From positions 1 to 52,313 of IMG/VR virus record IMGVR_UViG_3300028024_000013: a stretch of DNA of 52,313 nt; one strand, 5' to 3'. The first letter of the stretch is position 1. Every line of letters begins with the position of its first letter. Below the pieces are notes generated by a model. It was not told the DNA's origin. It made no database searches and worked only from the letters and a program-made list of their open reading frames with translations. Position numbers and translations under genes: made by a program. Source of the stretch: a virus. Its lineage: Duplodnaviria; Caudoviricetes. Of this stretch, positions 13 through 44,323 are shown piece after piece.

Positions 13-246
13 CGCAGTTGGCGTTGGAATGGGGCCCACCAGATTCAACGCTAGCCCCAAGGTGAGCAGCACGCATAGAGCGCTCCCTGAGACAGGGGTC
101 CATCTGATGTCCTCACCACTGCCCTGCCATTGAGTGCATCTTTTCGGTGCAACACTTAGCTCTCATTGCGCACCCGCACATCGGCAATAATCCCGCAGGT
201 TATTGATTGCTCTGGTGCGCTGCATGCTCATTAAGACAGTAGCCGG

Positions 247-1014
247 CTATCTGAATGCCGTGGCCAGTGCCTGTCTCATGGCCAGTGCGAACTCGAGCTT
301 GAACCGGCTACGTGCAGCCTGGTCAGCCACCTCAAAGAATCGCAATCGTCTGCGATATGACGCCCTGCTCACGAAGAGGAATACGGGCTTGATGCTCGAG
401 CCGAATCCGAACTCTGTCCTGACGTAGATCCCGGGCTTCAGCTTCTGGGTACGTTGCGAGGGTGGCCACGTGGAGAAGTAGAAGGTCGGTCGCTTTGTCC
501 TGCTCCTGCGGCGTCTCAGTCTCGAGCGTGCTGTGGTGTTGGCTGTGGCATCGAACTGGGCCTGCAGGTCAGAGACGATCTTGGTGAGCTGGGATCTCGG
601 AACATTCCCGTATGCGTCCAGTGGGATCAGCGATGTGGGAACAGCGAACGCATTGGGCGGCATCTTGCCCGCTGCGATCAGCCTTCGCTCGAATCCCTTG
701 CGGGCTCGCTGTCCACCGTAGATCTCGGACTTCAGGAACTTGATCGGGACGATACCCCCGCCGGTGGGGTCATCCTTGATCTTCACCAGTGCCCAGAGCT
801 TGTTCTTCCGGGCGGCCTCGACAAAGGTCGAATTGAGGGTATATCGGGTCGGTCTGTCGAAGACCCGGCCGATTTCCTCGATTACCTTCTGCTGGGCGAA
901 CTTTGCGGTTCGGGTCAGAGCCAGAGCGGTGGCAAACGGCACCTGCTCCCGACCCATGCGGGAGAGGTGGTTCTCGATCTCGTTGATATCGCCCTGGACG
1001 GAGTACTCAAGCAT
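247..1014 (-). CDS. Tail completion/neck protein, lambda gpZ-like
   Basis: 255 aa and basic. QVPFATALALTRTAK...FDRPTRYTLNS pattern typical of gpZ-like genes placed just before terminase. Confidence 0.6.
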   Translation of the reverse strand: MLEYSVQGDINEIENHLSRMGREQVPFATALALTRTAKFAQQKVIEEIGRVFDRPTRYTLNSTFVEAARKNKLWALVKIKDDPTGGGIVPIKFLKSEIYGGQRARKGFERRLIAAGKMPPNAFAVPTSLIPLDAYGNVPRSQLTKIVSDLQAQFDATANTTARSRLRRRRSRTKRPTFYFSTWPPSQRTQKLKPGIYVRTEFGFGSSIKPVFLFVSRASYRRRLRFFEVADQAARSRFKLEFALAMRQALATAFR

Positions 1015-1039
1015 ACTGCCCAGCCCAGGGAGGAAAACA

Positions 1040-1258
1040 GTGAACTGCGAACATCAATTCGTGGCCGTGGAAGAGAGCAAGTCCGTCACCTTTGCAGGCA
1101 TATTCGGTGTCGTTCTGTTCCTGTTCGGCGGAGCGGTCTGCTTTGCCAACGTGATCTTCGGGGCGCTGATCATCGTTCTGGCCATTATCATCAGCATGAG
1201 TGGCCGAAAACGAACCGTCATCAAATGCGCGAAGTGCGGCGAAATCAGCGCTGCCTGA
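1040..1258 (+). CDS. Small membrane protein with split Zn-ribbon (CEH...CAKC) around two TM helices; moron-like
   Basis: GGAGG RBS then GTG at 1040; hydrophobic hairpin; opposite strand to its neighbours. Confidence 0.65.
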   Translation: MNCEHQFVAVEESKSVTFAGIFGVVLFLFGGAVCFANVIFGALIIVLAIIISMSGRKRTVIKCAKCGEISAA

Positions 1259-1715
1259 CCTGAACCATCTGCCGGGCCACTCTCGGACGACCATTGACCA
1301 GCACACTGAACACGACCGTGTAGTCCTGCCCGTCCGTTCCGCCCGTGTAATCCGCAAGCAGATTCGTGAATTCACTCACGATCAGCGAACTCACGCTAAG
1401 GCCCGGGTCAGGTACAGCCGTGGGCGCTGAAATCGGATTCAGACCATTGTCGGCTGCAACCATGCACGTCCATGTCACAGAGCCGTCTATCACCGTTGCC
1501 CCGAGTGTTTTCGGCCATACCGGCTCACGACTGCCGCTTGTGCCGCCATTCGATACGAAGGAAAACCCGTTCCCGCGCGTCGGCCTCACGAATTCCGAGG
1601 CATCGTAAACCTCGTTCGGCCTCCAGATGTTCGCGCAGACCTTGTAGAAGCGCAGGATCACGCTGCGCACCTCTGCAGGGTCTTTCACGATGGGCGGGAA
1701 ACGATGCTCGCTCAT
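1245..1715 (-). CDS. Putative fibre-adaptor protein with inserted small carbohydrate-binding module
   Basis: KDP-start Ig-like adaptor pattern (KDPAEVRSVILRF...GGTDGQDYTV) interrupted by WRPNEVY...GTSGSREPVWP...DGSVTWTC (CBM5/12-like). Confidence 0.55.
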   Translation of the reverse strand: MSEHRFPPIVKDPAEVRSVILRFYKVCANIWRPNEVYDASEFVRPTRGNGFSFVSNGGTSGSREPVWPKTLGATVIDGSVTWTCMVAADNGLNPISAPTAVPDPGLSVSSLIVSEFTNLLADYTGGTDGQDYTVVFSVLVNGRPRVARQMVQVRQR

Positions 1716-2620
1716 GGGCTCAGTTCAAACACTTCAGTTTCATGCTCGATTTCCATGATGGCCACCGCATCCGCTATCTCGAATGACTCGCGCTGTTTAG
1801 CCAGACCGATCGAGCTCGAGCCAATGAAATTCGAGAGGGAATCATCGAGCGTGGTTTCTATACGCCCCACGGTCGCACCAGGCAGAAGCACGAAGCCCAC
1901 GAAAGTGCTCAGCGCATCTTCGAGCCCGACCTGAATCGTTCCGGTGTAGCTCGGGACCGTATGCGTTCCAGTGAACGCCGCACTTACATCATCGAGCGTG
2001 ACATTTACGGTCCCAAAGATCGTATCGGGCGTGAACGACTGGCCGCTGAAGAGCGCACTCGCATTGCCGAGCACACTTACGATCTGGCCCAGATTGCTCG
2101 CTGGGGCCGTATGCGTGCCCGAGAACGCGGCCGCGCTGTCATCCAGCGTGACACTGATGGTCCCGAGCACTGCACCCGGATCGGTGTACGTGCCCGTCAG
2201 CGCGCAGGATGCATCTTCCAGCGTGACATTGAAGTCACCCGAAACGCCCTGCGCTTCAGAGAACAGCCACGCAATACCGATACTGACCGGAATATCGATC
2301 AGTTCGAGCTGGGCAATCTCGCCAATGAACGAGACGGTCGCGCTTTCGAGAATGACCCCGATTGAACCGGTGGCCGTCCCCGAGCTGGCAAAGAATCCCG
2401 TGAATGCGGCCGCAGAGGCCGGCAACGTGACGTGAATCGATCCCGTGCGATCGATGCTGCCGTCGCCCTTGGGCCAGTGACCCGTGGGCCAGTGCTGGGT
2501 ATTCCAGTGGCCTACCGGCCAGTGATCGTATGTCCCTGTGGTCGGAGTGACATTCGGCCAGTGACGGTCGGGCCAGTGCCCTGTAGGCCAGTGAGCACTG
2601 GGCCAGTGGGTCTGGGCCAC
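1712..2620 (-). CDS. Repeat-rich virion/fibre protein (HWP pentapeptide repeats plus ~8 G-x-I-x-V-T-L...F-x-G repeats)
   Basis: 302 aa; repeats directly visible; tightly packed with neighbours. Confidence 0.7.
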   Translation of the reverse strand: MAQTHWPSAHWPTGHWPDRHWPNVTPTTGTYDHWPVGHWNTQHWPTGHWPKGDGSIDRTGSIHVTLPASAAAFTGFFASSGTATGSIGVILESATVSFIGEIAQLELIDIPVSIGIAWLFSEAQGVSGDFNVTLEDASCALTGTYTDPGAVLGTISVTLDDSAAAFSGTHTAPASNLGQIVSVLGNASALFSGQSFTPDTIFGTVNVTLDDVSAAFTGTHTVPSYTGTIQVGLEDALSTFVGFVLLPGATVGRIETTLDDSLSNFIGSSSIGLAKQRESFEIADAVAIMEIEHETEVFELSP

Positions 2621-2621
2621 A

Positions 2622-3833
2622 TTACGGGCTCAGCGTGACAGAGTCACGGTCGTTGCCCGTGTATGTCACGATGGCGCGGGTCGCCACACCATCCGGTGTC
2701 TTGAAGGTTCCACCGACTGTCTCACCGAGCACGGCCGCGAGAATGAGTCGCTGCGCCTGATCCGCAGTCACTGGGGTACTCGCCTGGGATTCGACGACAC
2801 GAGCACCCGAAGCCGCAGCGATTTCTGTCCCGACATCGGAAGCCACCTTGGCGGCCGTGATGGCATCGGCTGCAATCGCAGTAGCCGTCAATACTCCAGA
2901 CTGCATGGCACCGACACTCACATCGAGCCGTCCCGATATCAGACTCGACAGAGCTACGCCATTTACCTGTATGGCGTTGACCTGCAGTACACCGGAGGTT
3001 GCCGGAACAGTCGTGCCGCCAATCTGGTCCGTGTTGGCCGTTACGCGTGCCGTGACTGAAGCTACGGAACCTGAGAGATTGCCCGTGATGTTGCCCACAA
3101 GATCCGAATCGATTTCATTTCCGCTCGTCACCGTGCACTGAATGCCGTGACCCGAAGTTGCTCCACCGATGAAGCTCGCGCCGTTGCCGGTTGCGCCACC
3201 GCTTGATTTCAGACCCTGCGCAGAACCCTGACCGACGAGCTCCAGTGCAATCGCATTGCCTGCGGTTCCCGTCGCCTTGATGGCGCTGCCTGAGGTCGCG
3301 CCACCCACGGCAGAGATACCGATACCCGTCGCACCACCTGTAGCGAGAATTCCTGCGCCTGTTCCATTGCCGGCTGCACTGATCGCGGGCTGGTTAGTCG
3401 AACTGCGGGAGACGAGCAGGCCATCGGAGATAGTGAGCGAGCCTGTGACCGTGAGAGCCGCGAAGGTCGTCGTGCCGGCATTCGTCCCGTTGATATGCAG
3501 GCCACCTGAAGCGCCTGCAGCAGCGGTACCCGAAAAATTCAGCTGCGGATTGAAGGCGACTACTTCACCGATGATCATGTCGGTGGGGTCTGCGCCGGTG
3601 CCTGTCGCATGGAGACACAGAACACCCAGCGTATTCGAATCGGTGGCATTCCCGGCCACCTTGTACCAGCCATTGGATACTTCCGTGACCGCACCAGATG
3701 GCGAGGCAAATGCGCCCGCTGCTTTGCTGATCGTGACCGTCGGAGTAAGACCCGTCTTGCCCGTGACGTGATCCGTACTGTCGGTCATGAAGAACATGAT
3801 CGGATAGGCGGTGGTCGATTGCTGGATCAGCAT
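2622..3833 (-). CDS. Fibre-like protein: N-terminal Ig/BppU-like domain plus Gly/Ala-rich beta-solenoid repeats
   Basis: 403 aa; repeats such as GAGILATGGATGIGISAVGGATSGSAIKATG. Confidence 0.6.
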   Translation of the reverse strand: MLIQQSTTAYPIMFFMTDSTDHVTGKTGLTPTVTISKAAGAFASPSGAVTEVSNGWYKVAGNATDSNTLGVLCLHATGTGADPTDMIIGEVVAFNPQLNFSGTAAAGASGGLHINGTNAGTTTFAALTVTGSLTISDGLLVSRSSTNQPAISAAGNGTGAGILATGGATGIGISAVGGATSGSAIKATGTAGNAIALELVGQGSAQGLKSSGGATGNGASFIGGATSGHGIQCTVTSGNEIDSDLVGNITGNLSGSVASVTARVTANTDQIGGTTVPATSGVLQVNAIQVNGVALSSLISGRLDVSVGAMQSGVLTATAIAADAITAAKVASDVGTEIAAASGARVVESQASTPVTADQAQRLILAAVLGETVGGTFKTPDGVATRAIVTYTGNDRDSVTLSP

Positions 3834-3842
3834 GCCTGTTCT

Positions 3843-5804
3843 CTAATGAGCATTGGTGCCAAAGATTCTCTGACGCCGTTTACGTGCCTGTGAGGCGCCC
3901 GTTCCCGGTGTCCCAATCGTCCATTGCGGTGACACGCCGTAGGTGTTGAGCGCACTTCCCGCCTTCGTCACACGGAAGTCGTAAATCTGTCCGTTCGAGG
4001 CGTTGCTGCTCGCCTTGAGACACCACTCTATTTCGGTGTAGTCGTCGGTCGTAATGTCGATGGCGGGCGCAGGGTTACTGCTTTCGCACATCTCACCCGC
4101 CACGAAATCCGCCGTTGTCTTGCCACTGGGCGCTGCGAGTTGAGCCGTCGTCGTATCGCTGTCGGCGAACTGCGAGGACAGCGCGAGCTGAATCGGCTTG
4201 TCGATCTGACGCAGCCGGATCATGACCGCAGCACCCGCCGTGTTCGCCGCGTTCGTGCTCGAGGCCGTTGCGGTAAATGTCCCCGCTGCTGAACTCGTGC
4301 CTGATGTCACCGCGTGCTGACACACGATGATGCGACAGTCGTTACCGGTGGAGACCGCAGTATCGGTGTGCTCGGTCAATGCACCATAGGTCATGCCGGT
4401 CTGCGAGAGCGCTTCCGAGGCCCACGTTGCCGTGTCTTCGGATGAGCCAGCCGCTACGAACACCAGATCGCCTGCGGTCACCCCCGGATCGGTGCCGAAC
4501 GTCACACTGAATGCGGTACCCGCACTGTTGTCAGAGCCCGTCGCCGTCGCCGCATCCCAGTTCTTGCCGGTGGTCTTGGTCGAGCGCCAGATCACCGCTC
4601 CACAACTGGTGCCCGAGGTAATCGCGAGCGTCACACTGCCCGATTCGGTCCCGACCGCTTCCCGTCCGAACACCGTGACGCGAATGACGCCCGTGCCCGC
4701 TGCCTCACTGCCCGCACCGCCCGTCACCGTCGCAAGCTGCGTCCAGCCTCCTGCGGGAATCGTAGGCGTTGAGGCATTTGGCCGATTGACCACGGCCATG
4801 AGCAGGTAATCACCTGCCGCTATCGAGGCGGGATATGCAACCGTAGGCGCCGTGGTGCCCGTGTTGGTCGTAGTCCCAATCGTGCCGAACGCGAGCGCAC
4901 CTGCACCGGCGGCTTCGACTTTCGCATAGACCGAATCGCTGGAGAGTTTCGTCTCCAGTTGAAACTGGGTGCTCGCCAGATCGGCCGTCGTATCGATCAG
5001 AAAACGCAGTCGGGTGTTTATTCCCGTCGTTCGCGTGACCGAGGTGTCCTGAGTCGCAAGTGAGGACGCCGCCGTTTCGCTGCCATCATCGGCCCGCCAC
5101 AGAAATCCTTCCTGCGTGGTGGTGGCGCCACCGAATGACCCCGGCGGGGGATCGGATGCCCCGTTGGTGACCGAGCCGCTCGTCGTGAACGTGAACGCAT
5201 TCGGTCCCTGGTCGACCGAGCTCGTATCGTTAAAGTGATGCGAGAAGAGCAGACCCGTCGTGATGACAGGAGCCGTCGCGCTTGCTTCGGCGAGCAGTTC
5301 TGCATTGCTGAATACGCGCGCCCATGCACGGACATGAGCGACTTCACCATTGAGGCTCGTGACCGCCGTCGGATCGGCGAGCTGGCCGATGCGAATGTAG
5401 CGCTGCAGCTGCGAGAGCGCAGTGAAATTCTGCTTCTCGACGAGCGTCGTGTTATCGCCAATGAACCACGTCGTGAGCGGGTTCGCACCCGCCGGACGGG
5501 AGATGGCAATGTAGATCCACGTGTTGATCGGCAGCGGCACGCCCGTGAAGCCGAACCCGCTGCCGTTCGCCGCAGCATCGAACGCGCCCGTGGCGCCTGT
5601 CGTGCCATTGTTGTACGACTCGACGGAGTCAGAACGGCTGTTGCTGAGCTGCGAGAACGAGACGAACGGCTCGAAGCTCGTCCAGTTCACGACCTGCTTG
5701 AACCAGCCCGCGATACACAGCGCATCGGAGGCCGGAGTCAGATCGAACGAAGTCGTCAGGTCAAAGAGAATGTTGGCGCTGGCGCCATTGATACGGACGC
5801 TCAT
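3843..5804 (-). CDS. Multi-domain beta-rich protein with N-terminal LamG/concanavalin-A-like lectin domain
   Basis: 653 aa; CIAGWFK...NTWIYIAI...LNGEVAHVRAWARVFSNAEL is the LamG pattern; Thr/Ala/Gly-rich. Confidence 0.7.
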   Translation of the reverse strand: MSVRINGASANILFDLTTSFDLTPASDALCIAGWFKQVVNWTSFEPFVSFSQLSNSRSDSVESYNNGTTGATGAFDAAANGSGFGFTGVPLPINTWIYIAISRPAGANPLTTWFIGDNTTLVEKQNFTALSQLQRYIRIGQLADPTAVTSLNGEVAHVRAWARVFSNAELLAEASATAPVITTGLLFSHHFNDTSSVDQGPNAFTFTTSGSVTNGASDPPPGSFGGATTTQEGFLWRADDGSETAASSLATQDTSVTRTTGINTRLRFLIDTTADLASTQFQLETKLSSDSVYAKVEAAGAGALAFGTIGTTTNTGTTAPTVAYPASIAAGDYLLMAVVNRPNASTPTIPAGGWTQLATVTGGAGSEAAGTGVIRVTVFGREAVGTESGSVTLAITSGTSCGAVIWRSTKTTGKNWDAATATGSDNSAGTAFSVTFGTDPGVTAGDLVFVAAGSSEDTATWASEALSQTGMTYGALTEHTDTAVSTGNDCRIIVCQHAVTSGTSSAAGTFTATASSTNAANTAGAAVMIRLRQIDKPIQLALSSQFADSDTTTAQLAAPSGKTTADFVAGEMCESSNPAPAIDITTDDYTEIEWCLKASSNASNGQIYDFRVTKAGSALNTYGVSPQWTIGTPGTGASQARKRRQRIFGTNAH

Positions 5805-8314
5805 AGGCCGTTACTCGCCAGGAGCACCGCATAACAGCCTTCGGTATGGGCCTGAGCCCACACGAGGATCGAACGGCCATCACCGACGTCTTCGAGGAGG
5901 TTGAACTTGCTGAACGAGCCTGCGGCAGTGGTCGGACTGATCGTCGCGCCACCGAAGGTCACCGAGGTCCAGCTATACGTGCCGGTGAACGGATTGCTCG
6001 GGATCGTCAGCACACGGACGGTGTTGCCGCCGTGGTCGTAGGCGTACACCTTGCCGCTGCGCTGGTGATAGACCGCGCCCGTGCCACTTCCGTATGCACC
6101 TGTCCCCGTCGGAACCTTCTGCGCCCACGTCGCCACCGGGTTATCCGGGTTGAAGATGACGATGTAGCCTTCGAGGTGGCCGATGATGCCGACGCGCTTG
6201 TCCGGCGCGATCACCATCCAGCTCGCATGGCCATTGCCGACCGCGCCGAGCGAGACGTTGTACTGCTGGGCAGTGAACTTGCTCGCATGCATAGACCAGA
6301 GTGACTGGCCGTTCGCATTCGAGCCCACATTCGGACAGCGGAAGAGCTTCCAGCTATTCGGATCGAACGCCGCAGGCCCGCCCTGCGTGTCCATGTTGCC
6401 GCCCTTGACGGGCATCGGATCGCCGTGACGTACCCATGGGGCCGCGGCAGACGAAACAGGGAATGACGTCAGCGAGCGTCTGTCGAACGTCCACGCTTCT
6501 GTCTGGCGTCGGCCGTTCGAGTACGTGCCCTCAGGACCGAATACCCAGAGCTGGCGCGCGGCCCAGAGCGCCGTGTTCCAGCCGTGATAGCTGCGAATCT
6601 TGCCGTCGCTGTAGGCACTGCCGGGGCCGCTGAATTCGACGTCTGCGCCATCGACCGCAATCGTGGGATTGGAGATGCGGAATGCACCCGGCGTATTCGT
6701 GCGCAGGCGAAAGCCGATGACATCGTTGCCGCTCGAGTCGGTATGACCACCCGTGGCCGGCAGGATCAGCTCGCCGTCCCATGGATTGACGACGGCCGGC
6801 GTCCATGCGGTGAACTTCGAGCCGAAGTCGTAGCCGCCCGGAATCGTGGTCGGCATCGCGTCCATCCAGCGATTCGGCGCCGTGCTTCCGAGATGAACGA
6901 CGGTGTTCGTCGCGAGGCTCGTTGCCCATGTCGGAAGCGTCGCGCCTGGTACGTCCTGCGGACACTCGATGAACTCGCGGCTGAAGATGATCGAGGCGAG
7001 ATCGTGATCCCAGCCTGATTCGGGAATGGCGTTTGCCGTCTCACCTGTCGCATTCATGAATGCATTGACGGCGATCGCATTGAACGCCTGCGGCCACGGA
7101 TCGGTCGTGCCGTAGGACCAGACGTAGTCTTTCTTTTCCCAGATCTTCGTGTACTCGCGCTCGTTCCTGCGCGCGACCCACACCTCGACCCACGTGTCGT
7201 TGTTGGGATTCCCGGCCATCACCGGGTTATCGCCACCGCCGCCGTCGTGGCCCGGCTTCACATGGATCAACAGCGTGACGTACTCGTCCGCCGGGAAATT
7301 CCAGCACGCGGTCTGCGTGTTGCTGCCGATGAGACAGGTCGACGAATAGTCCGCGCCCGGCTGGAATTCTCCAGAACCGGAACTGCCCTGCTCGGAGGTC
7401 AGATGCGAGTTCGAGCGATTCCCGAAGTTCGTGTACATCTGGTACACGGCGCTCGGATTCGACTTGACGACGAGCTCCTGATTGAGCGTGCGCGGCTGCT
7501 GCGTACCCAAACCACCCGTGGGTCCGTCACCCGAGGTGAGGATCATGAGCAGCTTGCCGTCGGGCTGGCCGGGCAGGAACCTGCCCGCGCTCATCCTCAC
7601 ACGAGCCTGGATGTAGAAGTCCCAGCCCGGAATGCTGTCCGCGTGAAACCCGCCCGAACCGCCATCACCACGAATCGGATTGGTGACCGTCGACAGATAG
7701 TCGGGGTGGTAGTAGTACCCATCCGCCCATAGGCCCAGCTGAGTCGAGCTCGGCACCCACGTCTTGCGAGCGAGCGTTCCGTTCAGCGCAGGATCGGGCG
7801 TCGCCTTGCCGTTGCCCGGCGAGTTGAGCGGCGAGAAAGGACGTTCCCATCCGCCCTGACAGATGCCACCGGCAGGGACACGACAGCGCACCGCGCCGCC
7901 AGAGATGCCGTCTGGTATCCAGAAGACTTTCGCGGGATCGCTCGAGGGATACTTGAAGGCGTCGAACTCGGAAGACGTCGCGAAGTCATGCGCCCAGACC
8001 ACACCCTTGGCGGTCGAGCGCTTGGTCCAGTCTGCCTGCACAAGAGTGGTATTCGTTCCTCCGCCGGGCTGGGTGAACGTTCCACTGATGCCCGATGTGG
8101 CATTGGCGAGCGTCACGCCAATCGAGCCGGTGCGGTTCGGAGCCGCCGCAAAGATGCCGCGAAACGCCGCAGTCGCACTCTGGAGCGGGCTGTTCAGCGT
8201 TCCCGTTCTGGCCGGAGCCGGCGTGAACGTGCCGCGGATATTCGTCGTTACGCTGGCAAGCGTGTTCGCGACCCGCCCGAGAATCGAGGGCTGGTCAATG
8301 AAGCGAATCGCCAT
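5801..8314 (-). CDS. Large glycan-active/receptor-binding protein (N-terminal repeats, polysaccharide-lyase-like jelly-roll, C-terminal beta-propeller)
   Basis: 837 aa; DFYIQARVRM...GKLLMI and later kelch-like blades (GGHTDSSGND, SYHGWN, GAVYHQRSGKVYAY). Confidence 0.5.
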   Translation of the reverse strand: MAIRFIDQPSILGRVANTLASVTTNIRGTFTPAPARTGTLNSPLQSATAAFRGIFAAAPNRTGSIGVTLANATSGISGTFTQPGGGTNTTLVQADWTKRSTAKGVVWAHDFATSSEFDAFKYPSSDPAKVFWIPDGISGGAVRCRVPAGGICQGGWERPFSPLNSPGNGKATPDPALNGTLARKTWVPSSTQLGLWADGYYYHPDYLSTVTNPIRGDGGSGGFHADSIPGWDFYIQARVRMSAGRFLPGQPDGKLLMILTSGDGPTGGLGTQQPRTLNQELVVKSNPSAVYQMYTNFGNRSNSHLTSEQGSSGSGEFQPGADYSSTCLIGSNTQTACWNFPADEYVTLLIHVKPGHDGGGGDNPVMAGNPNNDTWVEVWVARRNEREYTKIWEKKDYVWSYGTTDPWPQAFNAIAVNAFMNATGETANAIPESGWDHDLASIIFSREFIECPQDVPGATLPTWATSLATNTVVHLGSTAPNRWMDAMPTTIPGGYDFGSKFTAWTPAVVNPWDGELILPATGGHTDSSGNDVIGFRLRTNTPGAFRISNPTIAVDGADVEFSGPGSAYSDGKIRSYHGWNTALWAARQLWVFGPEGTYSNGRRQTEAWTFDRRSLTSFPVSSAAAPWVRHGDPMPVKGGNMDTQGGPAAFDPNSWKLFRCPNVGSNANGQSLWSMHASKFTAQQYNVSLGAVGNGHASWMVIAPDKRVGIIGHLEGYIVIFNPDNPVATWAQKVPTGTGAYGSGTGAVYHQRSGKVYAYDHGGNTVRVLTIPSNPFTGTYSWTSVTFGGATISPTTAAGSFSKFNLLEDVGDGRSILVWAQAHTEGCYAVLLASNGL

Positions 8315-8752
8315 TTACGGCCCGATGATGTCCGCGAGCGAGACCGCGTATCGCTTGCCGGTCGCTGCGACGTAGTCGGTCGGTGTTCCCGCCCCGTCTG
8401 TCGCATCCTTGAAATGCAACACACGCGTTCCGTATACGAGAGCTGCGCCCGTCACACTCGCGCTCCATGCGCCGGTCGGGACCCAGCACGGATTGCCGAA
8501 GGGGTCAGTGTTAGCGCCTGCCGCCTGCAGATAGGTCAGTACTCCATTCACCTCAGACCAGCCCGCCTTGTCGAGGACAAGCGGCGTATAGCCGTTCGCG
8601 ATCGAAGGCTGCACGAGATCCGCGGTAACCGTGCTATCGCCGAGACTGTTCCTCGCATTGGTGTACAACACGAGAGTGACGTTCGGACCGTCGATCAGAT
8701 AGCGCTTGGCTATCTCGCTGCGTCCACCGAACGGAGTGCCGCGCAAAGCCAA
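8315..8752 (-). CDS. Small beta-rich virion/fibre subunit
   Basis: Probable TTG start at 8752, right after the upstream stop; LVLYTN...TADL...NGY...W pattern of small phage fibre subunits. Confidence 0.55.
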   Translation of the reverse strand: MALRGTPFGGRSEIAKRYLIDGPNVTLVLYTNARNSLGDSTVTADLVQPSIANGYTPLVLDKAGWSEVNGVLTYLQAAGANTDPFGNPCWVPTGAWSASVTGAALVYGTRVLHFKDATDGAGTPTDYVAATGKRYAVSLADIIGP

Positions 8753-8753
8753 T

Positions 8754-9008
8754 TCAGTGCACCTCGATAAGGGACGGCAGGCGGTTCGCAATCTCGCGAC
8801 CGACTTCTTTTCCGTACGCGTCCTGAACTGCAGACTGCAGGCGACGGACCAGCGTCTTCGCGTTCGCCCCATCCTTGCGTGCGCTATCGAGCAGCGTGTC
8901 CCATGTGGGAACGAGACCGCGATCCGCGAGCATCGGCAGGCTGATTTCCAGCGGCACACCGTGCGTGGCATGCCAGCGCCACACCTCAGTGCCGGGAATG
9001 CATTTCAC
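8754..9008 (-). CDS. Hypothetical protein resembling a helical subdomain of alanyl-tRNA synthetase
   Basis: 84 aa; IPGTEVWRWHATHGVPLEI aligns by eye with the AlaRS G-x-x-AFxLYDTYGFPxDL motif. Confidence 0.5.
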   Translation of the reverse strand: MKCIPGTEVWRWHATHGVPLEISLPMLADRGLVPTWDTLLDSARKDGANAKTLVRRLQSAVQDAYGKEVGREIANRLPSLIEVH

Positions 9009-9413
9009 TCAGGGATTCCCGTCCGTGATCGAGGCCGTGCTGATGGCCACAGTCCCGCCCAGCACAATCGAGGTCGAATCGAGCTGGAGATCCCCAGTGC
9101 CGGCGCTCACGGTCGAGACCGTCATGTCCAGCACGTGTGTCGTGCCGTTCGACTGCACGATACGAGCCCACGTTGCCGTGCCGGTTGCCGCCGCAGAATT
9201 CGCAGGCGAAATCGTATTGAGCGTGAGTACGCCACTCGACGCTGCGGGCGCGAACGTCGCATTGCACGTGAGCTGCGCGAGCAGATTGGTTGCGGCGCCA
9301 CCGGTCGCCGGCTGTGTACCGTCATAGATACGCAGCAGGGCCGAGCTGCCGGCCTGTGTCGTGATGGCGTTCAGGCGGTTGTTGCGCAGGGTTACTGCGA
9401 ATCGCATGGTCAT
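9009..9413 (-). CDS. Small beta-rich virion/fibre subunit
   Basis: 134 aa; RNNRLNAI...LRIYDGTQPAT...ATGTATWARI...GGTVAISTASIT, a recurrent phage structural family pattern. Confidence 0.65.
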   Translation of the reverse strand: MTMRFAVTLRNNRLNAITTQAGSSALLRIYDGTQPATGGAATNLLAQLTCNATFAPAASSGVLTLNTISPANSAAATGTATWARIVQSNGTTHVLDMTVSTVSAGTGDLQLDSTSIVLGGTVAISTASITDGNP

Positions 9414-9583
9414 TTGGCAGCCCTCCGCGCTTCGACTTTCGCGACGAGTTCGTCCGCCGTAGGTGCACGGCCTCCGGTCTCGCGCATGAGTTCCTCGAGG
9501 CCTTCCGCATCGAGGGACTTGCGGGCAGCCTCGATCATGTCGGGCGGCGGCGTGACCGTGCCCCCTAATACGGGTCGATACAT
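9410..9583 (-). CDS. Hypothetical protein
   Basis: 57 aa; GGAG RBS; ATGA overlap with the next gene. Confidence 0.5.
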   Translation of the reverse strand: MYRPVLGGTVTPPPDMIEAARKSLDAEGLEELMRETGGRAPTADELVAKVEARRAAK

Positions 9584-9593
9584 TTCAGACTCC

Positions 9594-9620
9594 AAAAAAA
9601 GAAAACCCGCCGAAGCGGGT
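9594..9620 (-). terminator. Intrinsic terminator
   Basis: Minus strand ACCCGC-TTCG-GCGGGT-TTTCTTTTTTT. Confidence 0.85.
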
Positions 9621-9657
9621 CAGTGAACGAACCTGCAGAGAAGCAGGCAGAGGGATC

Positions 9658-9951
9658 TCAGGAATCGGCTAGACGGAAATTTGATGGCGCAGCGAGTTTC
9701 GCAAACGCTAAAGGGCCAGCCACCCGGGCTGTTTCACCCTCGATGCCGGCGCCGTTGACCGCCCTGATCGAAAAATGATACGTGCCGTTCGCATTCGCGA
9801 GTGACGGCGCAGTGAGCAGATCGTAAACATCGACATCTGCCAGCATCACATCGGGTGTGGCCGTGTCATCCGGCGGCGAGTCCTTCTTGATCCGGATGTT
9901 GTACCCTGCCGCGCCCTCAACCTTGTCCCACCTGAGAAAGCGATTTGCCAC
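9658..9951 (-). CDS. Stand-alone fibronectin type III-like domain protein
   Basis: LRWDKVEGAAGYNI...YHFSIRAVNGAGIEG...AAPSNF; probable GTG start at 9951. Confidence 0.7.
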   Translation of the reverse strand: MANRFLRWDKVEGAAGYNIRIKKDSPPDDTATPDVMLADVDVYDLLTAPSLANANGTYHFSIRAVNGAGIEGETARVAGPLAFAKLAAPSNFRLADS

Positions 9952-10057
9952 GAGCCATGCTCCGAATGATGTTTGGACTCGCCAGTCGAAACTGACGAGA
10001 ATCGAGAAATCGAGAAGCTCTACGCGAGCGCCAGGCTCGGCGAGCTCGTACACCACA

Positions 10058-10723
10058 TCAGCGCACAAGACTGCCGCCCACGATGCTCTTCGCGCGGATG
10101 TCCGAGATCAAAGGACCTGCCGTCGCGCCTGTCGAAGACGGCAGTACGGTCCACGATACGAGACAGGTGCCGGTATCGATGCCATCGAAAGCCGAGAGCG
10201 TGAACTGTCCCGATCCGACGATGATTGGCGTGCCGACGATGACCTTCGCCGTCTCGTCGTAGGCCGTGCCGGTCGGGGCCTGTCCGTCCTGTAGCCTGAT
10301 GACGAGCGCATCGCTCTCAGGGTTCGAGAAGAATCCCGAGACGCCCTGACTGACCGCCACACCCACCGTAAACGTCAGCGCCTGATTCGCCCCGTTCGGG
10401 ATGACGTTATTGACGTACTGTTTCTGGTTCGGACCAAATCCGAGAAGCTGTCGGCTCCAGTGCGCGACGAAGAACGACTGACGTGCGCTTGAGCCGAAGG
10501 TCTGGATAGTCGCGATGCCATCGGGACTCAGCGTGACCTGATTGCCTTCCTGATCGATGTTGTCGTAGACGGCGAAGTCGCCCTGAAACACCGAAGGGTT
10601 CGCGTCCGACCAGATCGACTGGCTGTTTTCGCTGTCAATGGTCTCGACCAGTGTCCGGCCGAGTGCACCCGCATAGGTTGCAAGCCGCGGCAGCGGCGAG
10701 ATGCCATCGAAGATGCCGATCAC
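10058..10723 (-). CDS. Ig-like (He_PIG/cadherin-like) domain protein
   Basis: 221 aa; FTVGVAVS...APTGTAYD...IVGTP...FTLSAFDG. Confidence 0.55.
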   Translation of the reverse strand: MIGIFDGISPLPRLATYAGALGRTLVETIDSENSQSIWSDANPSVFQGDFAVYDNIDQEGNQVTLSPDGIATIQTFGSSARQSFFVAHWSRQLLGFGPNQKQYVNNVIPNGANQALTFTVGVAVSQGVSGFFSNPESDALVIRLQDGQAPTGTAYDETAKVIVGTPIIVGSGQFTLSAFDGIDTGTCLVSWTVLPSSTGATAGPLISDIRAKSIVGGSLVR

Positions 10724-11286
10724 TACATCACCAGTACGCGATCGCCGACGGCAAAGGCGGCATCCGGGGCCTGCGTGAACGTAACGCTGGCGCTACCGGA
10801 TGACAGCGTATGCGTCGCGATCACAGCGTAGTTGCCCGCGATTGAAGCCCCATACCCCGAATAGATCTGTCTGTTGCGCAGACGGTTGGACGGCAACCCG
10901 ATTCCCGCGATGACCATGCCGAGCGAAGTCACCGAGGACACCACCCCCGGATACATCAGGACGTAGGTGCCGCGATTCAGGATCGAGAAGCAGGCGAGAA
11001 TCGCATTTACCGTTTCGCCGTCGATGATGGCGCCGATGAGCGCGATCGAGTAGTCCTCGTGCGCGACGTAGAAGGCATCCGTCGTGTCGAGCGTGCCGTA
11101 CTGAAGGCCGGTTACGGAATCGAAGTTCGGCGTATCGACAATGCCAGTCGTGAACTCGGTTGTGCTGCCGCCCTTGTAGACGCGCAGTGATCCCGCAACC
11201 GAGCGCGCGATCGAGCCACCGGTCTTCGCGTTCGTGCTCCACGGGAATTTCACCGGCTGGCCGGGCAGATGATCGCCGAGATACAT
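10723..11286 (-). CDS. Virion/fibre-associated Ig/BppU-like protein
   Basis: 187 aa, beta-rich, translationally coupled to neighbours. Confidence 0.5.
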   Translation of the reverse strand: MYLGDHLPGQPVKFPWSTNAKTGGSIARSVAGSLRVYKGGSTTEFTTGIVDTPNFDSVTGLQYGTLDTTDAFYVAHEDYSIALIGAIIDGETVNAILACFSILNRGTYVLMYPGVVSSVTSLGMVIAGIGLPSNRLRNRQIYSGYGASIAGNYAVIATHTLSSGSASVTFTQAPDAAFAVGDRVLVM

Positions 11287-11290
11287 GTCG

Positions 11291-12004
11291 TTACGTGCCT
11301 GCCGGGTTCGATCCGGATACGGTTCCGCCCGGAGCGGGCGCCCAGTGGAAGCTGTGTGTCACGAGACCAATCGGAAGTGACCAGTCCGTCACACCTGAAA
11401 AGAGTCGTACGACCGTGATGGAGAACGGCAGCGCCGCCGTCTCGCCGGTCGTATTGATGCCATACACCGTGAACGGGCCGAAATTGCCCCGCACGGTCGG
11501 CGTACCGTTGATCGTCCCCGTCAGTTCATCAAACGTCAGTCCATTGATGGCGGCATCGATGTCCGGCGCGATACGAAACGAAGTTGCGCCCGTGAAGACG
11601 TTGCAGACCTTCGCCGCGATCGTCTGGTCGACCACATACGATTCCGAGGAGATGACTCCTGCGAGAATCGGCGCGATCGGTGAAAAGACAATCAGCGAGC
11701 CGAGATCGCTTGGCGTCGCGAGACCTGATGTCGCCCCGGTCCCGATGAGTTGGATCGCGACACCAACCTGGCTCGTCGAGCCTGATGGCGTGCCGGACAG
11801 GACCCCCGCCGAGAAAGTGAGCCCGAGTCCAGCGAAGGTCCCAGGCGTCGCCTCCGTGACGTTGACGACTTCCTCGTCGGACTGCCAGCGCGCGTTGAAA
11901 TCGATCGGCGGGATGGCCACGCCCTGCTGAAACGTGATCGTCGCTAAGTCAGGTCCGATGAAGCGAGGCGCGAGACCGGATATGCCCCAAACGACATCGG
12001 CCAT
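11291..12004 (-). CDS. Tandem putative Ig (He_PIG) domain protein
   Basis: Two copies of GLTF...G.(L/I).GTP. Confidence 0.65.
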   Translation of the reverse strand: MADVVWGISGLAPRFIGPDLATITFQQGVAIPPIDFNARWQSDEEVVNVTEATPGTFAGLGLTFSAGVLSGTPSGSTSQVGVAIQLIGTGATSGLATPSDLGSLIVFSPIAPILAGVISSESYVVDQTIAAKVCNVFTGATSFRIAPDIDAAINGLTFDELTGTINGTPTVRGNFGPFTVYGINTTGETAALPFSITVVRLFSGVTDWSLPIGLVTHSFHWAPAPGGTVSGSNPAGT

Positions 12005-12005
12005 T

Positions 12006-15000
12006 TCACTGCACAGCCCCGCGGTTCTTCCACACTACGCCACGCGATCCGTCATCGTTCGTCGTCATGAGCCAGATCGGACTGTTCACCACCCGCGTCA
12101 CGCTCGTCTGCACGGTGATGACTCCGGTCAGGGGGTTGCCACCGTCCGCAATCTGCGTGGGGTTGCACTCGGTGACCTTGGATGTCGCCGCAGGACCGAC
12201 GCAAATCCAGTCGCCGTATTCCCGATGGAGTCCGCCCCACGTATAGGATGCCATGCCGTAGTCGTCCTTCATGACGAAGGGATCGGCGACCGTGAACGAT
12301 GTCCCGCTACCCACCGCGGAGACTTTCGTGATCGGCGCGGCATCACCAAGGCCAACCGTATTCGTCGGCGAGAGCGCCAGGCCGGCCCTGCTCGGGACGG
12401 GGGTAGTCGTGCCGTTCGCGAACTTCAGCGGCGTGAGCGTGTTGTTGCAGACGTTCGCTGGCCACTTCGTGCAGTCGGCCCACGAGACCGTGCCCGAACC
12501 ATTGCCGCCGAGCGAGAATTGAGCCGCGGTGCCAGGCCCGCTTGCGATGTTGTAGTCGTAGACCGAGTCCCGCCAGTCATTGGCGTACGTGCCCTTGCCC
12601 AGCACGGTCATGTTCTTCTTGATCCATGGCACGGTCGTCGAGCCACTGTTGCGACCGTCGAGCATGCCCATGAAGATGTTGTTCCGGAGCAGCACTCCGG
12701 AGCAGTTGCGCGTGTCGGCGTTCGTCGGAAATGACACGTCGAGATCCGTCGGGAAAATCCCGGCGTGGCCGTACATCGTGTTGTTGTAGATCTTCTGCTG
12801 GCCAATCGTGTACGGCAGCACCGAATTTGCAGAGCCGAATGACAGTCCGCAGGTCGTCGACATGGACGCAACCGGGGATGTGATCTGCTTGTTGTAGAAG
12901 TAATTGCCCCGGACGATGACGCCGATGCCCCAGAGCTCCATGGAGTAGTTCCACGTCCTGCGCTCGCCGTCTGCGCCGGCGTCGTACATCTCGTTGTCTT
13001 CGACGGTCACCGGCCCGTAGGCTGCTGGAAAGGCAATCGAGCCGTGGACCTGATCGTGATTGCCGGCGCCTACTTCGAGCGTGTGATTGCCACGGGCCGT
13101 CGGATTGCGGGGCGGCACATCGGCGAAGTCACCCCAGTAGTTCGAGACCACATTCCGCCGCGCCACCTGCCATGGGCCGCGCAACATCAGGGTCTTGTGC
13201 CCCCCGCGCCGGAAGATTGAATCGATGACGACCGAGTGATGCGAGCCGAAGAAGAAGAGATCGCCCGAGTCATCCTTGTTGTAGGTGCCATCGGCGAACA
13301 GCCCCTGGTTGGCGCCGTGGTCGTAGCCCTCGACGTTCTTCACCAGCATGTAGCCGGAATCCTGAAAGATGTCGTTGGCCGTAAATCCATTACCCGTGCC
13401 GCCGCCGTGCCAGGTCTGGTTGATGAAGGCGATGTGCGAGGACTGACGCACCAGCAGCGCATGGCGGTTGGTATAGCAGTTGAAGATCGGCGCCGTGTTG
13501 TTGCGAGCACAGCCGATGTTGAACTGCGAGTGATCCCCGAGCCTCAAGCCGGTGCGATCCTCGAGGCCCCCGTCCACAATCCAGTAATGGCAATTGGTCC
13601 AGTCGCTGATGCCCTTGTCGTTGCCGGCATCGGAACTGAAGATGATGTGATCGCCCTGACGGACACGGACCGTAATCTCGTGGCCTGCCGTGCCACTCAC
13701 GCCGTTGCAGACGAGCTTCGGCCAGATCTCGGTCGCCCCGGGAACCGTCGTGCGCAGCTCGAGAATGTCATCGGGCACCCGCTGCGAAATCGCAGCCGTC
13801 GCGAGCTGCAGGTCGGTGTAGTTGCAGCCGACCCGGCACGCGGTATGCGTCGGGTCCGGAATGGTGTCCGGGGGTTTGTCGCACTCCGGGCAAGAATCCC
13901 GGAAGCCACCGCTGGCCGCAATCTGCACCTGATTCTGACCCGTGCGGGATGCTGCAAGCGATTTCCAGCCCGTCCCGTCATTCCAGCGCCAGGCGAACAA
14001 GGAGACCGCCGTGGGAATATGGAACCGGCCGTTGGTCTCTATCGTGAAATCCTGCACGCCCGAGCCGTTCTTGCAGCCTGCCCCCGGGGTGCGGGTAACC
14101 GTCCGGACATGGACCTGACTGTTGCTCGTGAGGTCATTGGCCGGATTCGAATCGCCGAACCGGTTGACGTGACCTGAAGCGGTCGAGAATGGAATCAGCG
14201 TCCCGAGATCGAAGTAACACTCCCCTGTCGGCGCATCGATAGTAACGGCCTTGCTCGCGACCGTACCGACATTCGTCGTCACCCTGACTGACCGCGATCC
14301 GAAACGGCAGTTGCCCTGAACCGCATCCACCTGGATATCGGTCGCAGACCACGAGTCCACGGTGAACGTCGAGGTCATGGCGCCGTCGACGCACTGGACG
14401 CTGCCCGTGCCCTGACTCGCACCGAACCCCGTCCCGATGACGTGCAGGTTCGTTTCCGTGGAGGTCAGGACGTTGTCGCCCGAGACGCTCGTGATCGCCG
14501 GGGCGCCCCCGCCCGAAGCTTTCAGGAAGATCATTACCGAGTTCTGCGTGGAGACACTCGGATTGCCGGTGATCAGCAGGTCCTGCTGGGCAATCGCGGT
14601 CAGCGTCGTCTGGATCGAATACGCGACCGCCATCGCGTTCGAACCGAAGGCGGCGTCTGCCGTCTCGGTGAAGTTCGGCGCAACCGCAACGCTCGTCCAC
14701 GTGTTGTTCGAGCGGCCAACGTAAATTGCCGCTTCATTCGCCGCGGTCGGTGTCAGCGCCGGGATGCGAAAGGCAGTCTGTGAACTCGCGTTCGCCGTGT
14801 TCGAGACATCCACGACCGAGGCGATGTTGGTCGTATCGACACCGCGGAAGACCAGACACTGCGCCTGCAGCGTCGTCGTAGTGCCGGGGTTGACGGTAGG
14901 ATTGGCGTCAGATCCCGCCGCAATGTGACCGTAGAGCTTCGTGCTGATGCCATTGGCGGCGAGCTCTGTGAATCCTGAAGGCGTCGGAACGGTGCCCGAC

Positions 15001-15170
15001 CCGTCGAACTCGATAGCGACGATCCGCAGGTCGTTGGCTATCGCGGCCGGGCAGACGACAGTCTTCGTCGTCCCCGTATTCGATTGCATGACGGCGCCAG
15101 AACCCACAAAGGTAATGGCCGCCAGCGCCCATCCGGGCGATAGCAGGATGAGCGCAAGCAGATAGCGCAA
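12006..15170 (-). CDS. Large secreted-type protein: signal peptide, beta-sandwich, IPT/TIG-like domain, right-handed beta-helix (pectin-lyase-like)
   Basis: GAGG RBS then TTG at 15170 gives MRYLLALILLSPGWALA|AITF; PAITSVS...HVIGTGFGASQGTGSV (IPT); VARRNVV, IVRGNYFY, IYNNTMY, LRNNIF (beta-helix); many Cys. Confidence 0.7.
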   Translation of the reverse strand: MRYLLALILLSPGWALAAITFVGSGAVMQSNTGTTKTVVCPAAIANDLRIVAIEFDGSGTVPTPSGFTELAANGISTKLYGHIAAGSDANPTVNPGTTTTLQAQCLVFRGVDTTNIASVVDVSNTANASSQTAFRIPALTPTAANEAAIYVGRSNNTWTSVAVAPNFTETADAAFGSNAMAVAYSIQTTLTAIAQQDLLITGNPSVSTQNSVMIFLKASGGGAPAITSVSGDNVLTSTETNLHVIGTGFGASQGTGSVQCVDGAMTSTFTVDSWSATDIQVDAVQGNCRFGSRSVRVTTNVGTVASKAVTIDAPTGECYFDLGTLIPFSTASGHVNRFGDSNPANDLTSNSQVHVRTVTRTPGAGCKNGSGVQDFTIETNGRFHIPTAVSLFAWRWNDGTGWKSLAASRTGQNQVQIAASGGFRDSCPECDKPPDTIPDPTHTACRVGCNYTDLQLATAAISQRVPDDILELRTTVPGATEIWPKLVCNGVSGTAGHEITVRVRQGDHIIFSSDAGNDKGISDWTNCHYWIVDGGLEDRTGLRLGDHSQFNIGCARNNTAPIFNCYTNRHALLVRQSSHIAFINQTWHGGGTGNGFTANDIFQDSGYMLVKNVEGYDHGANQGLFADGTYNKDDSGDLFFFGSHHSVVIDSIFRRGGHKTLMLRGPWQVARRNVVSNYWGDFADVPPRNPTARGNHTLEVGAGNHDQVHGSIAFPAAYGPVTVEDNEMYDAGADGERRTWNYSMELWGIGVIVRGNYFYNKQITSPVASMSTTCGLSFGSANSVLPYTIGQQKIYNNTMYGHAGIFPTDLDVSFPTNADTRNCSGVLLRNNIFMGMLDGRNSGSTTVPWIKKNMTVLGKGTYANDWRDSVYDYNIASGPGTAAQFSLGGNGSGTVSWADCTKWPANVCNNTLTPLKFANGTTTPVPSRAGLALSPTNTVGLGDAAPITKVSAVGSGTSFTVADPFVMKDDYGMASYTWGGLHREYGDWICVGPAATSKVTECNPTQIADGGNPLTGVITVQTSVTRVVNSPIWLMTTNDDGSRGVVWKNRGAVQ

Positions 15171-15187
15171 AGTTAGCCTCGTATATG

Positions 15188-15214
15188 AAAACGCCCCGCG
15201 CAAAGGCGAGGCGT
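15188..15214 (-). terminator. Intrinsic terminator after Q-like gene (tR'-like)
   Basis: Minus strand ACGCCTCGC-CTTTGC-GCGGGGCGT-TTT. Confidence 0.65.
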
Positions 15215-15232
15215 CAGAGCGACTGAAGGCGC

Positions 15233-15793
15233 TCAGCCGGTAACGGTCAGCTTCGTTCGATTGAGGGCCGTAAGGTTAAGATCGGCCGGGGAGAATTTCG
15301 GCAGCGTAGCCGTAATGGACTGCTTTGTAGCGGATTCTCTGCGCAGTGGCAAGCTCGCATCACATGCAGTCGGATCGAGCCTGGCAAATACCCAGAACTC
15401 GGCGCGGCCAACAGCCTCCCAGAACACGCGCTCCTTCATGCCGATGATCTTCGCCCGGTCTGACCACGACAGGTTGAACTCGGGGTCCCAGACGTACTTG
15501 ACGTGTATCGCGTCGTAGGTGCTCTCAGGCATGCCAACGAGCGCACGCTGCACTTCGAGTCCGTCACCGAAATAGACTTCGGCCCACCGTTGAGCTGACG
15601 CGCCTGACTGCCCGGCTGCCACACGTTCGTCGAGGATGCGGCCCATGAAGCTCTCAGAGTAGCCGTCGATGTGCCGGCGAATCGCACCCTGACTATTCAC
15701 GTACGTGTCACGACCTTGCCAGATGCGACGCTTCTGCCGGCCCCAGCGATTGCAGGCAAGGCGGACCCACTCCGGAATATCGCTACGGCTCAT
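15233..15793 (-). CDS. Putative late-gene regulator (antiterminator Q-like)
   Basis: WGRQ N-terminus; VQRALVGMPE...IHVKY; C-terminal HTH-like segment; last gene before the late cluster. Confidence 0.55.
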   Translation of the reverse strand: MSRSDIPEWVRLACNRWGRQKRRIWQGRDTYVNSQGAIRRHIDGYSESFMGRILDERVAAGQSGASAQRWAEVYFGDGLEVQRALVGMPESTYDAIHVKYVWDPEFNLSWSDRAKIIGMKERVFWEAVGRAEFWVFARLDPTACDASLPLRRESATKQSITATLPKFSPADLNLTALNRTKLTVTG

Positions 15794-44305: not shown

Positions 44306-44323
44306 GGGGGTCACTCCAGAACG

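Follow-up and report, generated by a model that had tools for sequence, protein, structure and literature searches.

To our knowledge, phage fibres built from a collar, a rope and beads were first resolved by cryo-electron microscopy between 2023 and 2025, in one podophage and a few myophages. The complex of fibre-tail adaptor gp77, rope and Fiber I of the Ralstonia podophage GP4 (PDB 8JOU) was reported by Zheng et al., J Mol Biol 2023. Here, we analysed a block of 14 open reading frames (ORFs) running from position 15170 to position 1245 of IMG/VR virus record IMGVR_UViG_3300028024_000013, a lambdoid siphophage; the window is this one whole record of 52,313 base pairs (bp), which has a completeness rating of 100%. 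We numbered the ORFs g1 to g13 from 15170 downward, with g8a and g8b in the eighth place. The block is most likely a large variant of the collar-rope-bead fibre, and its best reading, which we consider somewhat probable, is that of accessory virion fibres at the head-tail junction collar.

GP4 gp77 is described as a 15-mer that surrounds the dodecameric head-to-tail adaptor and carries three fibre sets (PMC11445570), and Bas63 as having an Ig (immunoglobulin)-like collar ring and whisker dimers arranged "like beads on a string" round a rope, which completes the incomplete sandwiches of these dimers (PMC12609058). The latter report describes the Bas63 complex as homologous to the GP4 adaptor/rope/Fiber-1 complex and gives the GP4 rope as a separate, longer protein holding five dimers (PMC12609058). 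In the Agrobacterium myophage Milano, gp13 is described as having a wall domain split by a decorating domain, forming pentadecameric neck rings and being encoded next to neck 1 (PMC10491603); in 7-7-1, the collar is joined to the portal via neck 1 (PMC12796354).

The comparison of our locus with these systems starts from g13. Homologues of g13 are few (14 among 5.8 billion proteins), and two of these 14 carry a precomputed assignment to PF23148, the Pfam family of GP4 gp77. A sequence search of the PDB with g13 returned nothing significant. We built an AlphaFold2 model of g13 from 16 sequences (predicted local distance difference test, pLDDT, 89.8), and a Foldseek search with it placed phage collars in the top rows, all with E values of at least 0.0099 (gp77, E 0.038). 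Using VIA-align, the beta-sandwich of the model superposed on gp77 (8jou_B; Z 11.7, root-mean-square deviation 1.5 Å, 85/89 residues, 20% identity) and also aligned with the collars of Milano (Z 9.2) and 7-7-1 (Z 9.0); generic Ig-like domains reached Z values of about 7-8, which the gp77 match exceeded. By its predicted fold, g13 is a structural homologue of the neck collar/fibre adaptors of GP4, Milano and 7-7-1. Like Milano gp13 (8FWC) and 7-7-1 gp118 (9RKT), it appears as a wall-type sandwich interrupted by an inserted domain, and its gene lies beside a neck gene. The Bas63 collar was not among the top matches of g13.

To determine which genes accompany this protein elsewhere, we performed profile scans with gpZ and g13, which yielded 15 loci with a g13-like gene, the window included. 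In 14 of the 15, the g13-like gene is succeeded by a tail-completion/Neck1 gene, immediately in 13 of them and past one ORF of 99 amino acids (aa) in locus L094. The follower is of the phrog_1924 type in six loci (the window, L004, L006, L012, L041 and L091) and of the phrog_27 type in eight (L085 to L090, L092 and L094). The exception, L093, has another type of terminase and portal and no tail-completion/Neck1 follower; there, a homologue of g12 (34% identity) is found directly upstream of the g13-like gene, and the pair sits just before TerS. Hub genes were never linked to a g13-like gene in the DNA covered. Upstream, most of 80 gpZ-like loci carry primase, helicase, methyltransferase, replication, regulatory or antiterminator genes; at the loci with a g13-like gene, we found in this place unannotatable proteins with repeats, LamG-like features (read by eye) or matches to phrog_553 ("minor tail"). 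These upstream proteins vary from locus to locus in a mosaic fashion, and Pfam searches with 33 proteins of the related loci returned almost nothing. In L094, the g13-like domain is fused as the N-terminal part of a 760-aa protein, the remainder of which has weak tail-fibre and baseplate PHROG matches; from this arrangement, the domain appears to act as a fibre anchor.

Some features of these loci may be recorded here in their own right. In L094, a viral contig of 63.8 kb, the protein with the g13-like collar domain (P0020, 9848-12127) has GYQP(D/E) pentapeptide repeats before that domain and is fused to a spike-looking region of ~560 aa, and P0021 (7293-9833) is a g11-like fibre protein. Large proteins with Ala-rich repeats are encoded upstream of g13-like genes in four loci (L012:3255-5501, L041:2429-5095, L007:6991-8619 and L085:695-2092). 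The repeats have a period of 20 residues in the three proteins tested (L012, L041 and L085; z 7.8 to 15.7), and all four proteins share, by eye, an "RNRPGRGPYS-GR" motif. At their C-termini, those of L012 and L041 resemble each other in a basic strand motif that L004:8404-9516 shows as well. We also considered whether the collar docks on a gpW-like adaptor of the long form (~180 aa) and rejected this, as many loci that lack g13 have the long form and L041 combines a g13-like gene with a short one.

The second protein that links the block to known fibres is g7. It matched phrog_3758 (E 5.9e-27), and 2027 representative relatives were found at E<=1e-3. As a single sequence, g7 gave nothing significant against PDB sequences; a 70-sequence profile matched 9rkv_A (E 1.7e-16) and 44nx_B (E 2.2e-15). 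PDB entry 9RKV is described as the "tail fibers" model of 7-7-1, in which long and short fibres are present together with small garland proteins (PMC12796354), and we take chain A to be the garland protein because of its size of 141 aa. The predicted model of g7 (pLDDT 93.4) consists of a helix at residues 7-21 followed by strands, that is, an N-terminal helix and an incomplete beta-sandwich. It aligned by VIA with 9rkv_A (Z 15.5), with the connector whisker of Bas63 (9mt4_K) and the neck chain of Sf14 (9c39_K) at Z 9.8 each (107/107 and 108/108 residues), with GP4 Fiber I (Z 6.4) and with A511 gp105 and phi812 (Z 6.2-6.5), while unrelated rows stayed at or below 4.3. With respect to the garlands of Milano (gp125/gp127) and 7-7-1 (gp014, 9RKV), g7 is related in sequence to the 7-7-1 chain and also to the product of Milano's last gene. 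On its profile and predicted fold, g7 is a member of the bead family of garland, whisker and Fiber I proteins. A resemblance of g8b to g7, which by eye suggested a distant paralogue, is mentioned here only as a remark, as hhalign of g8b against the g7 profile gave a probability of 0.3%, which is not significant.

A candidate for the rope is g12, whose gene adjoins that of g13. Two of its stretches (positions 6-21 and 34-49) each contain four Trp residues spaced five apart, and after these come eight 16-residue motifs, G-x-I-x-V-T-L-x-D-A-x-x-x-F-x-G, that recur with a period of 25 residues over positions 60-252. The autocorrelation at period 25 reached z 10.7, compared with at most 1.0 in four control sequences. 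With short, evenly spaced motifs along a seemingly extended chain encoded beside the collar gene, g12 has the look expected of a rope. When two copies of g13 were folded with g12, the complex prediction scored 0.22 against a mark of 0.32, with no controls folded and the fold of the partner uncertain, and this score weighs neither in favour of binding nor against it. The N-terminus of g9 resembles g12 (BLASTP E 1.5e-5; period 25, z 7.7).

Three large proteins, g9, g10 and g11, are probably the distal parts of the fibre, as suggested by ESM Atlas leads and by composition. Residues 456-833 of g9, in their ESM Atlas model, match ~400-aa propeller clusters (template modelling score 0.76-0.80, normalised by target). 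For g10, the first ESM Atlas match was a viral cluster (score 0.90) with Laminin_G_3 in 38% of its members, and the structure rows were LamG proteins; Pfam returned no match for it. The Gly-rich shaft of g11 has a period of 46 residues (z 4.6) and is 50% identical to P0021 of L094 over 121 aa (E 1e-24). Sequence searches of the PDB with g9, g10 and g11 gave nothing significant. Two further resemblances seen by eye, an N-terminal domain shared by g3, g11 and P0021 and a "minor-tail-like" domain shared by g1, g10, L4_253 and L012_221, were supported by neither BLASTP nor local jackhmmer and were dropped.

We propose that the block is a composite late-gene module, the downstream two thirds of which (g6 to g13) most likely form accessory virion fibres at the head-tail junction. 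Judging from its homologues in GP4, Milano and 7-7-1, the Ig-like g13 would encircle the connector as a collar ring, beside the gpZ-like protein. Ropes made of g12 (eight 25-residue repeats) and of the g9 N-terminus (two or three) would project from this collar, and dimers of g7 would be threaded on them like beads, as in GP4 Fiber I and in the whiskers of Bas63 and Sf14. At the distal end, g9, g10 and g11 would supply heads, probably glycan-binding, for a first, reversible contact with the host surface; the last step, at the tail tip, would fall to the short J-like hub. The lack of a fibre gene after this hub is in keeping with the proposal. The remaining third, g1 to g5, would probably be an accessory unit with a function at the cell envelope, as opposed to a virion part assembled in the cytoplasm.

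This arrangement resembles that of GP4, in that g13 is predicted to have the gp77 fold, g7 shares the fold of Fiber I and a separate repeat protein (g12) is encoded beside the collar gene. It differs from GP4, a podophage, in its lambdoid siphophage setting, in the g13 insert, in at least three further large proteins (g9-g11) and in a probably exported upstream unit. With the Felixounavirus myophages Bas63 and Sf14 (PDB 9MT4, 9C39), the locus shares a whisker-type protein, g7 aligning over the full length of the whisker chain with its helix and incomplete sandwich, and a predicted beads-on-a-string design with an Ig-like collar; the Bas63 rope, however, is described as an N-terminal extension of the collar that holds two dimers (PMC12609058), whereas the candidate rope here is a separate protein of 302 aa with eight repeats. 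The Milano collar differs in that it bears no fibres and is disulfide-linked to the sheath, and the garland is located at the baseplate and not at the neck. Two other systems are alike in architecture or description. Cyanomyophage A-1(L) has a multi-protein bead-chain neck fibre with a distal carbohydrate-binding module, encoded in an operon of its own apart from the tail genes; likened by architecture alone, it consists of a gp5 pentadecamer and a gp82-gp81-gp80 bead chain, in which the pentadecamer is helical and the beads are trimers (PMC10966104). The neck passage structure (collar-whisker) of lactococcal siphophages (PMC6669499) is likewise a neck-borne, carbohydrate-binding accessory of siphophages; it differs in being a single large protein of Gram-positive phages, encoded after the baseplate genes.

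Several observations weigh against placing these fibres at the neck or against the composition that we propose. The reading is based on the genes and predicted models of an uncultivated virus. The match of g13 to PF23148 in Pfam is sub-threshold (E 0.028, 15.4 bits compared with a cut-off of 27), Ig-like folds are common, and none of the Foldseek E values for g13 was lower than 0.0099. A profile of g12 matched, among PDB sequences, only designed WD40-like repeat proteins, with no similarity to a solved rope, and no virion protein could be linked significantly to g2-g6 or g8-g11. Of the genes directly upstream of g13 in 14 loci, 6 are strongly periodic, 2 are weakly so and 6 show no periodicity. 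Among 17 loci scanned (15 of them with a g13-like gene), a g7-like gene (E<=0.01) was present only in the window and in L016, which lacks g13. That the g7-like gene of L016 lies in the head-completion region speaks, on the other hand, for the neck. Collar and bead are thus not generally co-travelling. Because periodicity upstream of g13 is found in part of the loci and a g7-like gene in two, the collar seems able to carry fibres of different types, and the reading of beads on a rope holds for this phage but not for the group as a whole. Finally, the protein that g7 matches best in structure is the garland of the 7-7-1 baseplate and not a neck protein, and in Caulobacter phage Seuss and Vibrio VP16-like phages, g7 homologues adjoin baseplate or J genes; a tail-tip location of part of the module is therefore equally compatible with these g7 data.

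The last point belongs to a rival explanation, in which the block is an ordinary receptor-binding module (side fibre or tailspike) displaced from its usual place to the opposite end of the late operon and mounted on the distal tail or hub, with g13 as a tip adaptor and g7 as a garland or fibre-network connector as in myophage baseplates. It would account for a hub that is short and has no fibre gene after it, for the closest solved relative of g7 being a baseplate garland, for the weak likeness of g5 to the FN3 region of J and for the mosaic gene content upstream of g13, which is typical of host-range modules. We nevertheless judge it fairly unlikely, as all three solved homologues found for g13 (in GP4, Milano and 7-7-1) are neck or collar proteins, the linkage of g13 in 14 of 15 loci is to tail-completion/Neck1 genes and, in the DNA covered, never to hub genes, and the other solved homologues of g7 (in Bas63, Sf14 and GP4 Fiber I) are borne by the neck. 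Attachment to the capsid, as head fibres or as decoration on vertices or hexamers, is suggested by a match of the g13 insert to phrog_20658, labelled "head decoration" (E 4e-9), and 7-7-1 is reported to have capsid fibres made of unidentified proteins (PMC12796354). That match, however, spans only residues 28-85 of g13, and this small domain is also found in tailspikes (VIA Z 7.4 to the receptor-binding domain of the Pam1 tailspike) and its type in a beta-helix protein of Bacillus phage PK1; with the core fold and the gene linkage of g13 both favouring the collar or neck, capsid fibres are very unlikely.

The block might also be read as a whole as non-virion cargo, a moron island that encodes a secreted adhesin or polysaccharide-degrading apparatus of the infected cell or lysogen. 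The signs in this direction come from g1, which has a conserved signal peptide and lies in the classical position of a moron after the Q-position gene, from the terminator-like hairpin after g5, and from the g11-like protein of L094, which also starts with a signal-peptide-like stretch (g11 of the window has none). Such an N-terminus is nevertheless found in only one of the 14 proteins, the families of g7 and g13 have been solved as parts of virions, g6-g13 are translationally packed with the gpZ-like tail gene, and no integrase was recognised in the genome, which together make cargo of this kind extremely improbable.

Read by eye, g1 begins with a textbook signal peptide of the Sec type (MRYLLALILLSPGWALA/A). 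Its TTG start at 15170, preceded by GAGG at a distance of 6 nucleotides (nt), agrees with that of database entry P0001. A signal peptide, also read by eye, is kept in 3/3 homologues of g1 (identities 72, 55 and 39%), one of which has only 650 aa and lacks the N-terminal 420 residues, yet has a signal peptide of its own. Cysteine makes up 1.9% of the residues of g1, compared with at most 1.3% in the other ORFs (leaving aside the over-extended 8315-8971 frame). Judged by its sequence, g1 is probably exported via Sec. Given the conserved signal peptide, the 20 Cys and the hairpin after g5, we treat g1-g5 as a separate unit that is probably, at least in part, exported. It is also conceivable, though we think it quite improbable, that the Cys-rich g1 (and the L094 g11-like protein) is a genuine fibre or enzyme part that folds and forms its disulfides in the periplasm and is loaded on the g13 collar only at or after lysis. 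In that event, virions of this phage group would be assembled in part beyond the cytoplasm.

These results bear on an initial annotation of the block, made from the sequence alone. Its view of a separate multi-component appendage was partly supported, and of the options it offered, neck fibres are the best supported (by the g13 fold, the linkage in 14/15 loci and the g7 family); its option of a partly secreted apparatus receives some support from the conserved signal peptide of g1, read by eye. It had also named the block the best candidate for an undescribed system. For the core, this is not borne out: g13 and g7, and perhaps also g12, most likely map onto the published collar-rope-bead fibre, the architecture of GP4, Bas63 and Sf14 (PMC12609058, PMC11445570). 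A mapping onto a described fibre system was found for g13, for g7 and, more tentatively, for g12, and not for the other eleven genes. Among the labels that it gave to single proteins, that of an adaptor agrees with the fold match of g13 to GP4 gp77, and that of repeat proteins was confirmed for g11 and g12. The propeller (g9) and LamG (g10) labels agree with the ESM Atlas leads, He_PIG was borderline in g2 and weak in g4, and FN3 was weak in g5 (Table 1). The IPT/beta-helix label of g1 and the "lyase-like" label of g9 found no support from any tool: Pfam gave no family at E values up to 5, and for g1, PHROG and PDB sequence searches also returned nothing. Tail-fibre PHROG matches were absent from the proteins of the block except for the weak FN3-region match of g5.

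We then placed the block in the late-gene order of the record (Table 1). All late genes are on the minus strand. Read along this strand, TerS is followed by a gpA-type TerL (best match, 48% identity), the gpW-like gene, a lambda-type portal and a protease-capsid fusion, and then by the FII-like head-closure gene, tail terminator, tube, chaperone, tape measure and distal tail protein up to the J-like hub. Downstream of the hub, where the initial annotation had correctly seen the tail module end without a fibre gene, two small ORFs, an endolysin and a spanin are found. The early genes occupy 16-33 kb. The gpZ-like tail-completion gene is the last before the genome end (cos), and the record ends 246 nt past it; as the record represents one whole virus with ends that can be joined, the block lies directly upstream of the gpZ-like gene, cos and terminase. 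In keeping with this order, TerL lies within 10 kb in 74/80 related gpZ-like loci. Searches for close relatives were negative: megablast of positions 1-15300 and tblastn with g11, each against 50,697 phage records, gave no match, viral-contig scans with the single proteins g9 and g1 yielded no relatives, and neither did two species-genome scans, one with gpZ and one with the g13 profile.

Table 1. Coordinates of the features discussed, numbered as in the window (lengths of proteins in aa).
Feature	Length (aa)	Positions	Strand	Description
g1	1054	12006..15170	-	N-terminal Sec-type signal peptide, read by eye; 20 Cys
g2	237	11291..12004	-	borderline He_PIG Ig-like: PF05345 E 7.7e-5, 23.5 bits vs cut-off 24
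g3	187	10723..11286	-	no family match
g4	221	10058..10723	-	weak He_PIG-like: PF05345 E 0.005
g5	136	9658..10068	-	weak FN3-like: DUF4992 E 4.6e-4, fn3 E 0.17, phrog_31 (J FN3 region) E 6e-4
g6	about 57-61	9410..9595	-	small; no family match
g7	134	9009..9413	-	putative bead protein, garland/whisker/Fiber-I family
g8a	84	8754..9008	-	no gap to g7; no family match
g8b	145	8315..8752	-	TTG at 8752 after GAGGT
g9	837	5801..8314	-	N-terminus (1-95) with 2-3 copies of the g12 repeat; C-terminal half probable beta-propeller
g10	653	3843..5804	-	probable LamG/ConA-like lectin fold (ESM Atlas lead)
g11	403	2622..3833	-	Gly/Ala/Thr-rich repeat shaft, fibre-like
g12	302	1712..2620	-	candidate rope; adjoins g13
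g13	156	1245..1715	-	predicted Ig-like collar/fibre adaptor with ~60-aa inserted domain (28-88)
Opposite-strand ORF	72	1040..1258	+	two hydrophobic helices; GGGAGG 6 nt before GTG
gpZ-like tail-completion gene		247-1014	-	phrog_1924 E 1e-71; Pfam Minor_tail_Z 22 bits vs cut-off 23.9
Q-position gene	186	15233..15793	-	no Pfam or PHROG family
Terminator-like hairpin with T-run		15192..15208	-	between Q-position gene and g1; consensus scan and sequence read
Strong terminator-like hairpin		9604..9621	-	7-bp GC-rich stem, TTCG loop, T-run; consensus scan
TerS		51654-52256	-	first late gene; record begins 57 nt before it (minus-strand reading)
gpW-like protein		49386-49925		
FII-like protein		44809-45099		
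Major tail tube protein		43664-44314	-	N-terminal domain matching Pfam E1_FCCH (E 9.5e-10), then lambda-like tube domain
J-like hub	656	36801-38771	-	end of tail module (44.8 to 36.8 kb)
ORF with membrane-like segment	162	35949-36437	-	lysis gene
Endolysin		34565-34960	-	lysis gene
Rz-like spanin		33769-34254	-	lysis gene
CsrA-like regulator		26324-26527	+	among early genes; phrog_9500 E 4e-30
ParB-like domain fused to DNA methyltransferase		18627-19793	-	phrog_21315 E 3e-103

The block itself, about a quarter of the genome, is co-oriented and tightly packed, as had been annotated; it lies on the minus strand, and most of its junctions overlap or are spaced by less than 10 nt. It comprises 14 ORFs and not the 13 counted before, because the 218-aa frame at 8315-8971 resolves into two genes (8754-9008 and 8315-8752). 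Its upstream border is formed by RusA and the 186-aa gene in the Q position. The annotated placement between a Q-like gene and the terminase was right as to position, with two amendments: the gpZ-like gene and the opposite-strand ORF at 1040-1258 precede cos, and the Q-like gene has no family match. Some relatives have an antiterminator (phrog_6386) or a weak Q-like match at the equivalent spot. A 62-nt gap after g5 divides the block and holds the second hairpin of Table 1, which is stronger than the one before g1.

A few neighbouring features were noted along the way. Between g13 and the gpZ-like gene is a gap of 230 nt, which holds the opposite-strand ORF; its product has a Cys-x-x-Cys close to the C-terminus. 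This ORF is absent in L004, where the g13-like and gpZ-like genes abut, and it may be a small membrane-protein moron, in a position comparable to that of lambda bor and outside the fibre module. The lysis genes lie after the tail hub and not after the Q-position gene, the reverse of the order in lambda and F10. Pseudomonas phage F10 (NC_007805) otherwise resembles this phage in its gpA-type terminase, lambda-type portal, protease-capsid fusion and gpZ-like gene last before cos; it differs in that lysis genes take the place of fibre genes ahead of the gpZ-like gene, its fibre genes being located past the tail tip. The Stf/Tfa/J fibres of lambda are not matched here, and it is lysis genes that follow the hub. 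Many of the related loci likewise encode the ParB-like/methyltransferase fusion upstream of their gpZ-like gene (e.g., L066:3474-5420).

What differs in this phage, with the core most likely following a described fibre, is the siphophage setting, the position before cos beside a tail-completion gene, the size of 14 genes and 14 kb, the insert of g13, the three large, probably distal proteins and a first gene that is probably exported. These findings also raise the question of why a module of this kind should begin with a protein whose export signal is conserved. Genes that are otherwise unannotatable, in a 14-gene block swapped between relatives, gain names and testable roles. Collar and bead proteins in a lambdoid siphophage suggest that the appendage is a module portable across tail types, and the neck would be, besides the tail tip, a place to seek the host-range determinants of siphophages.

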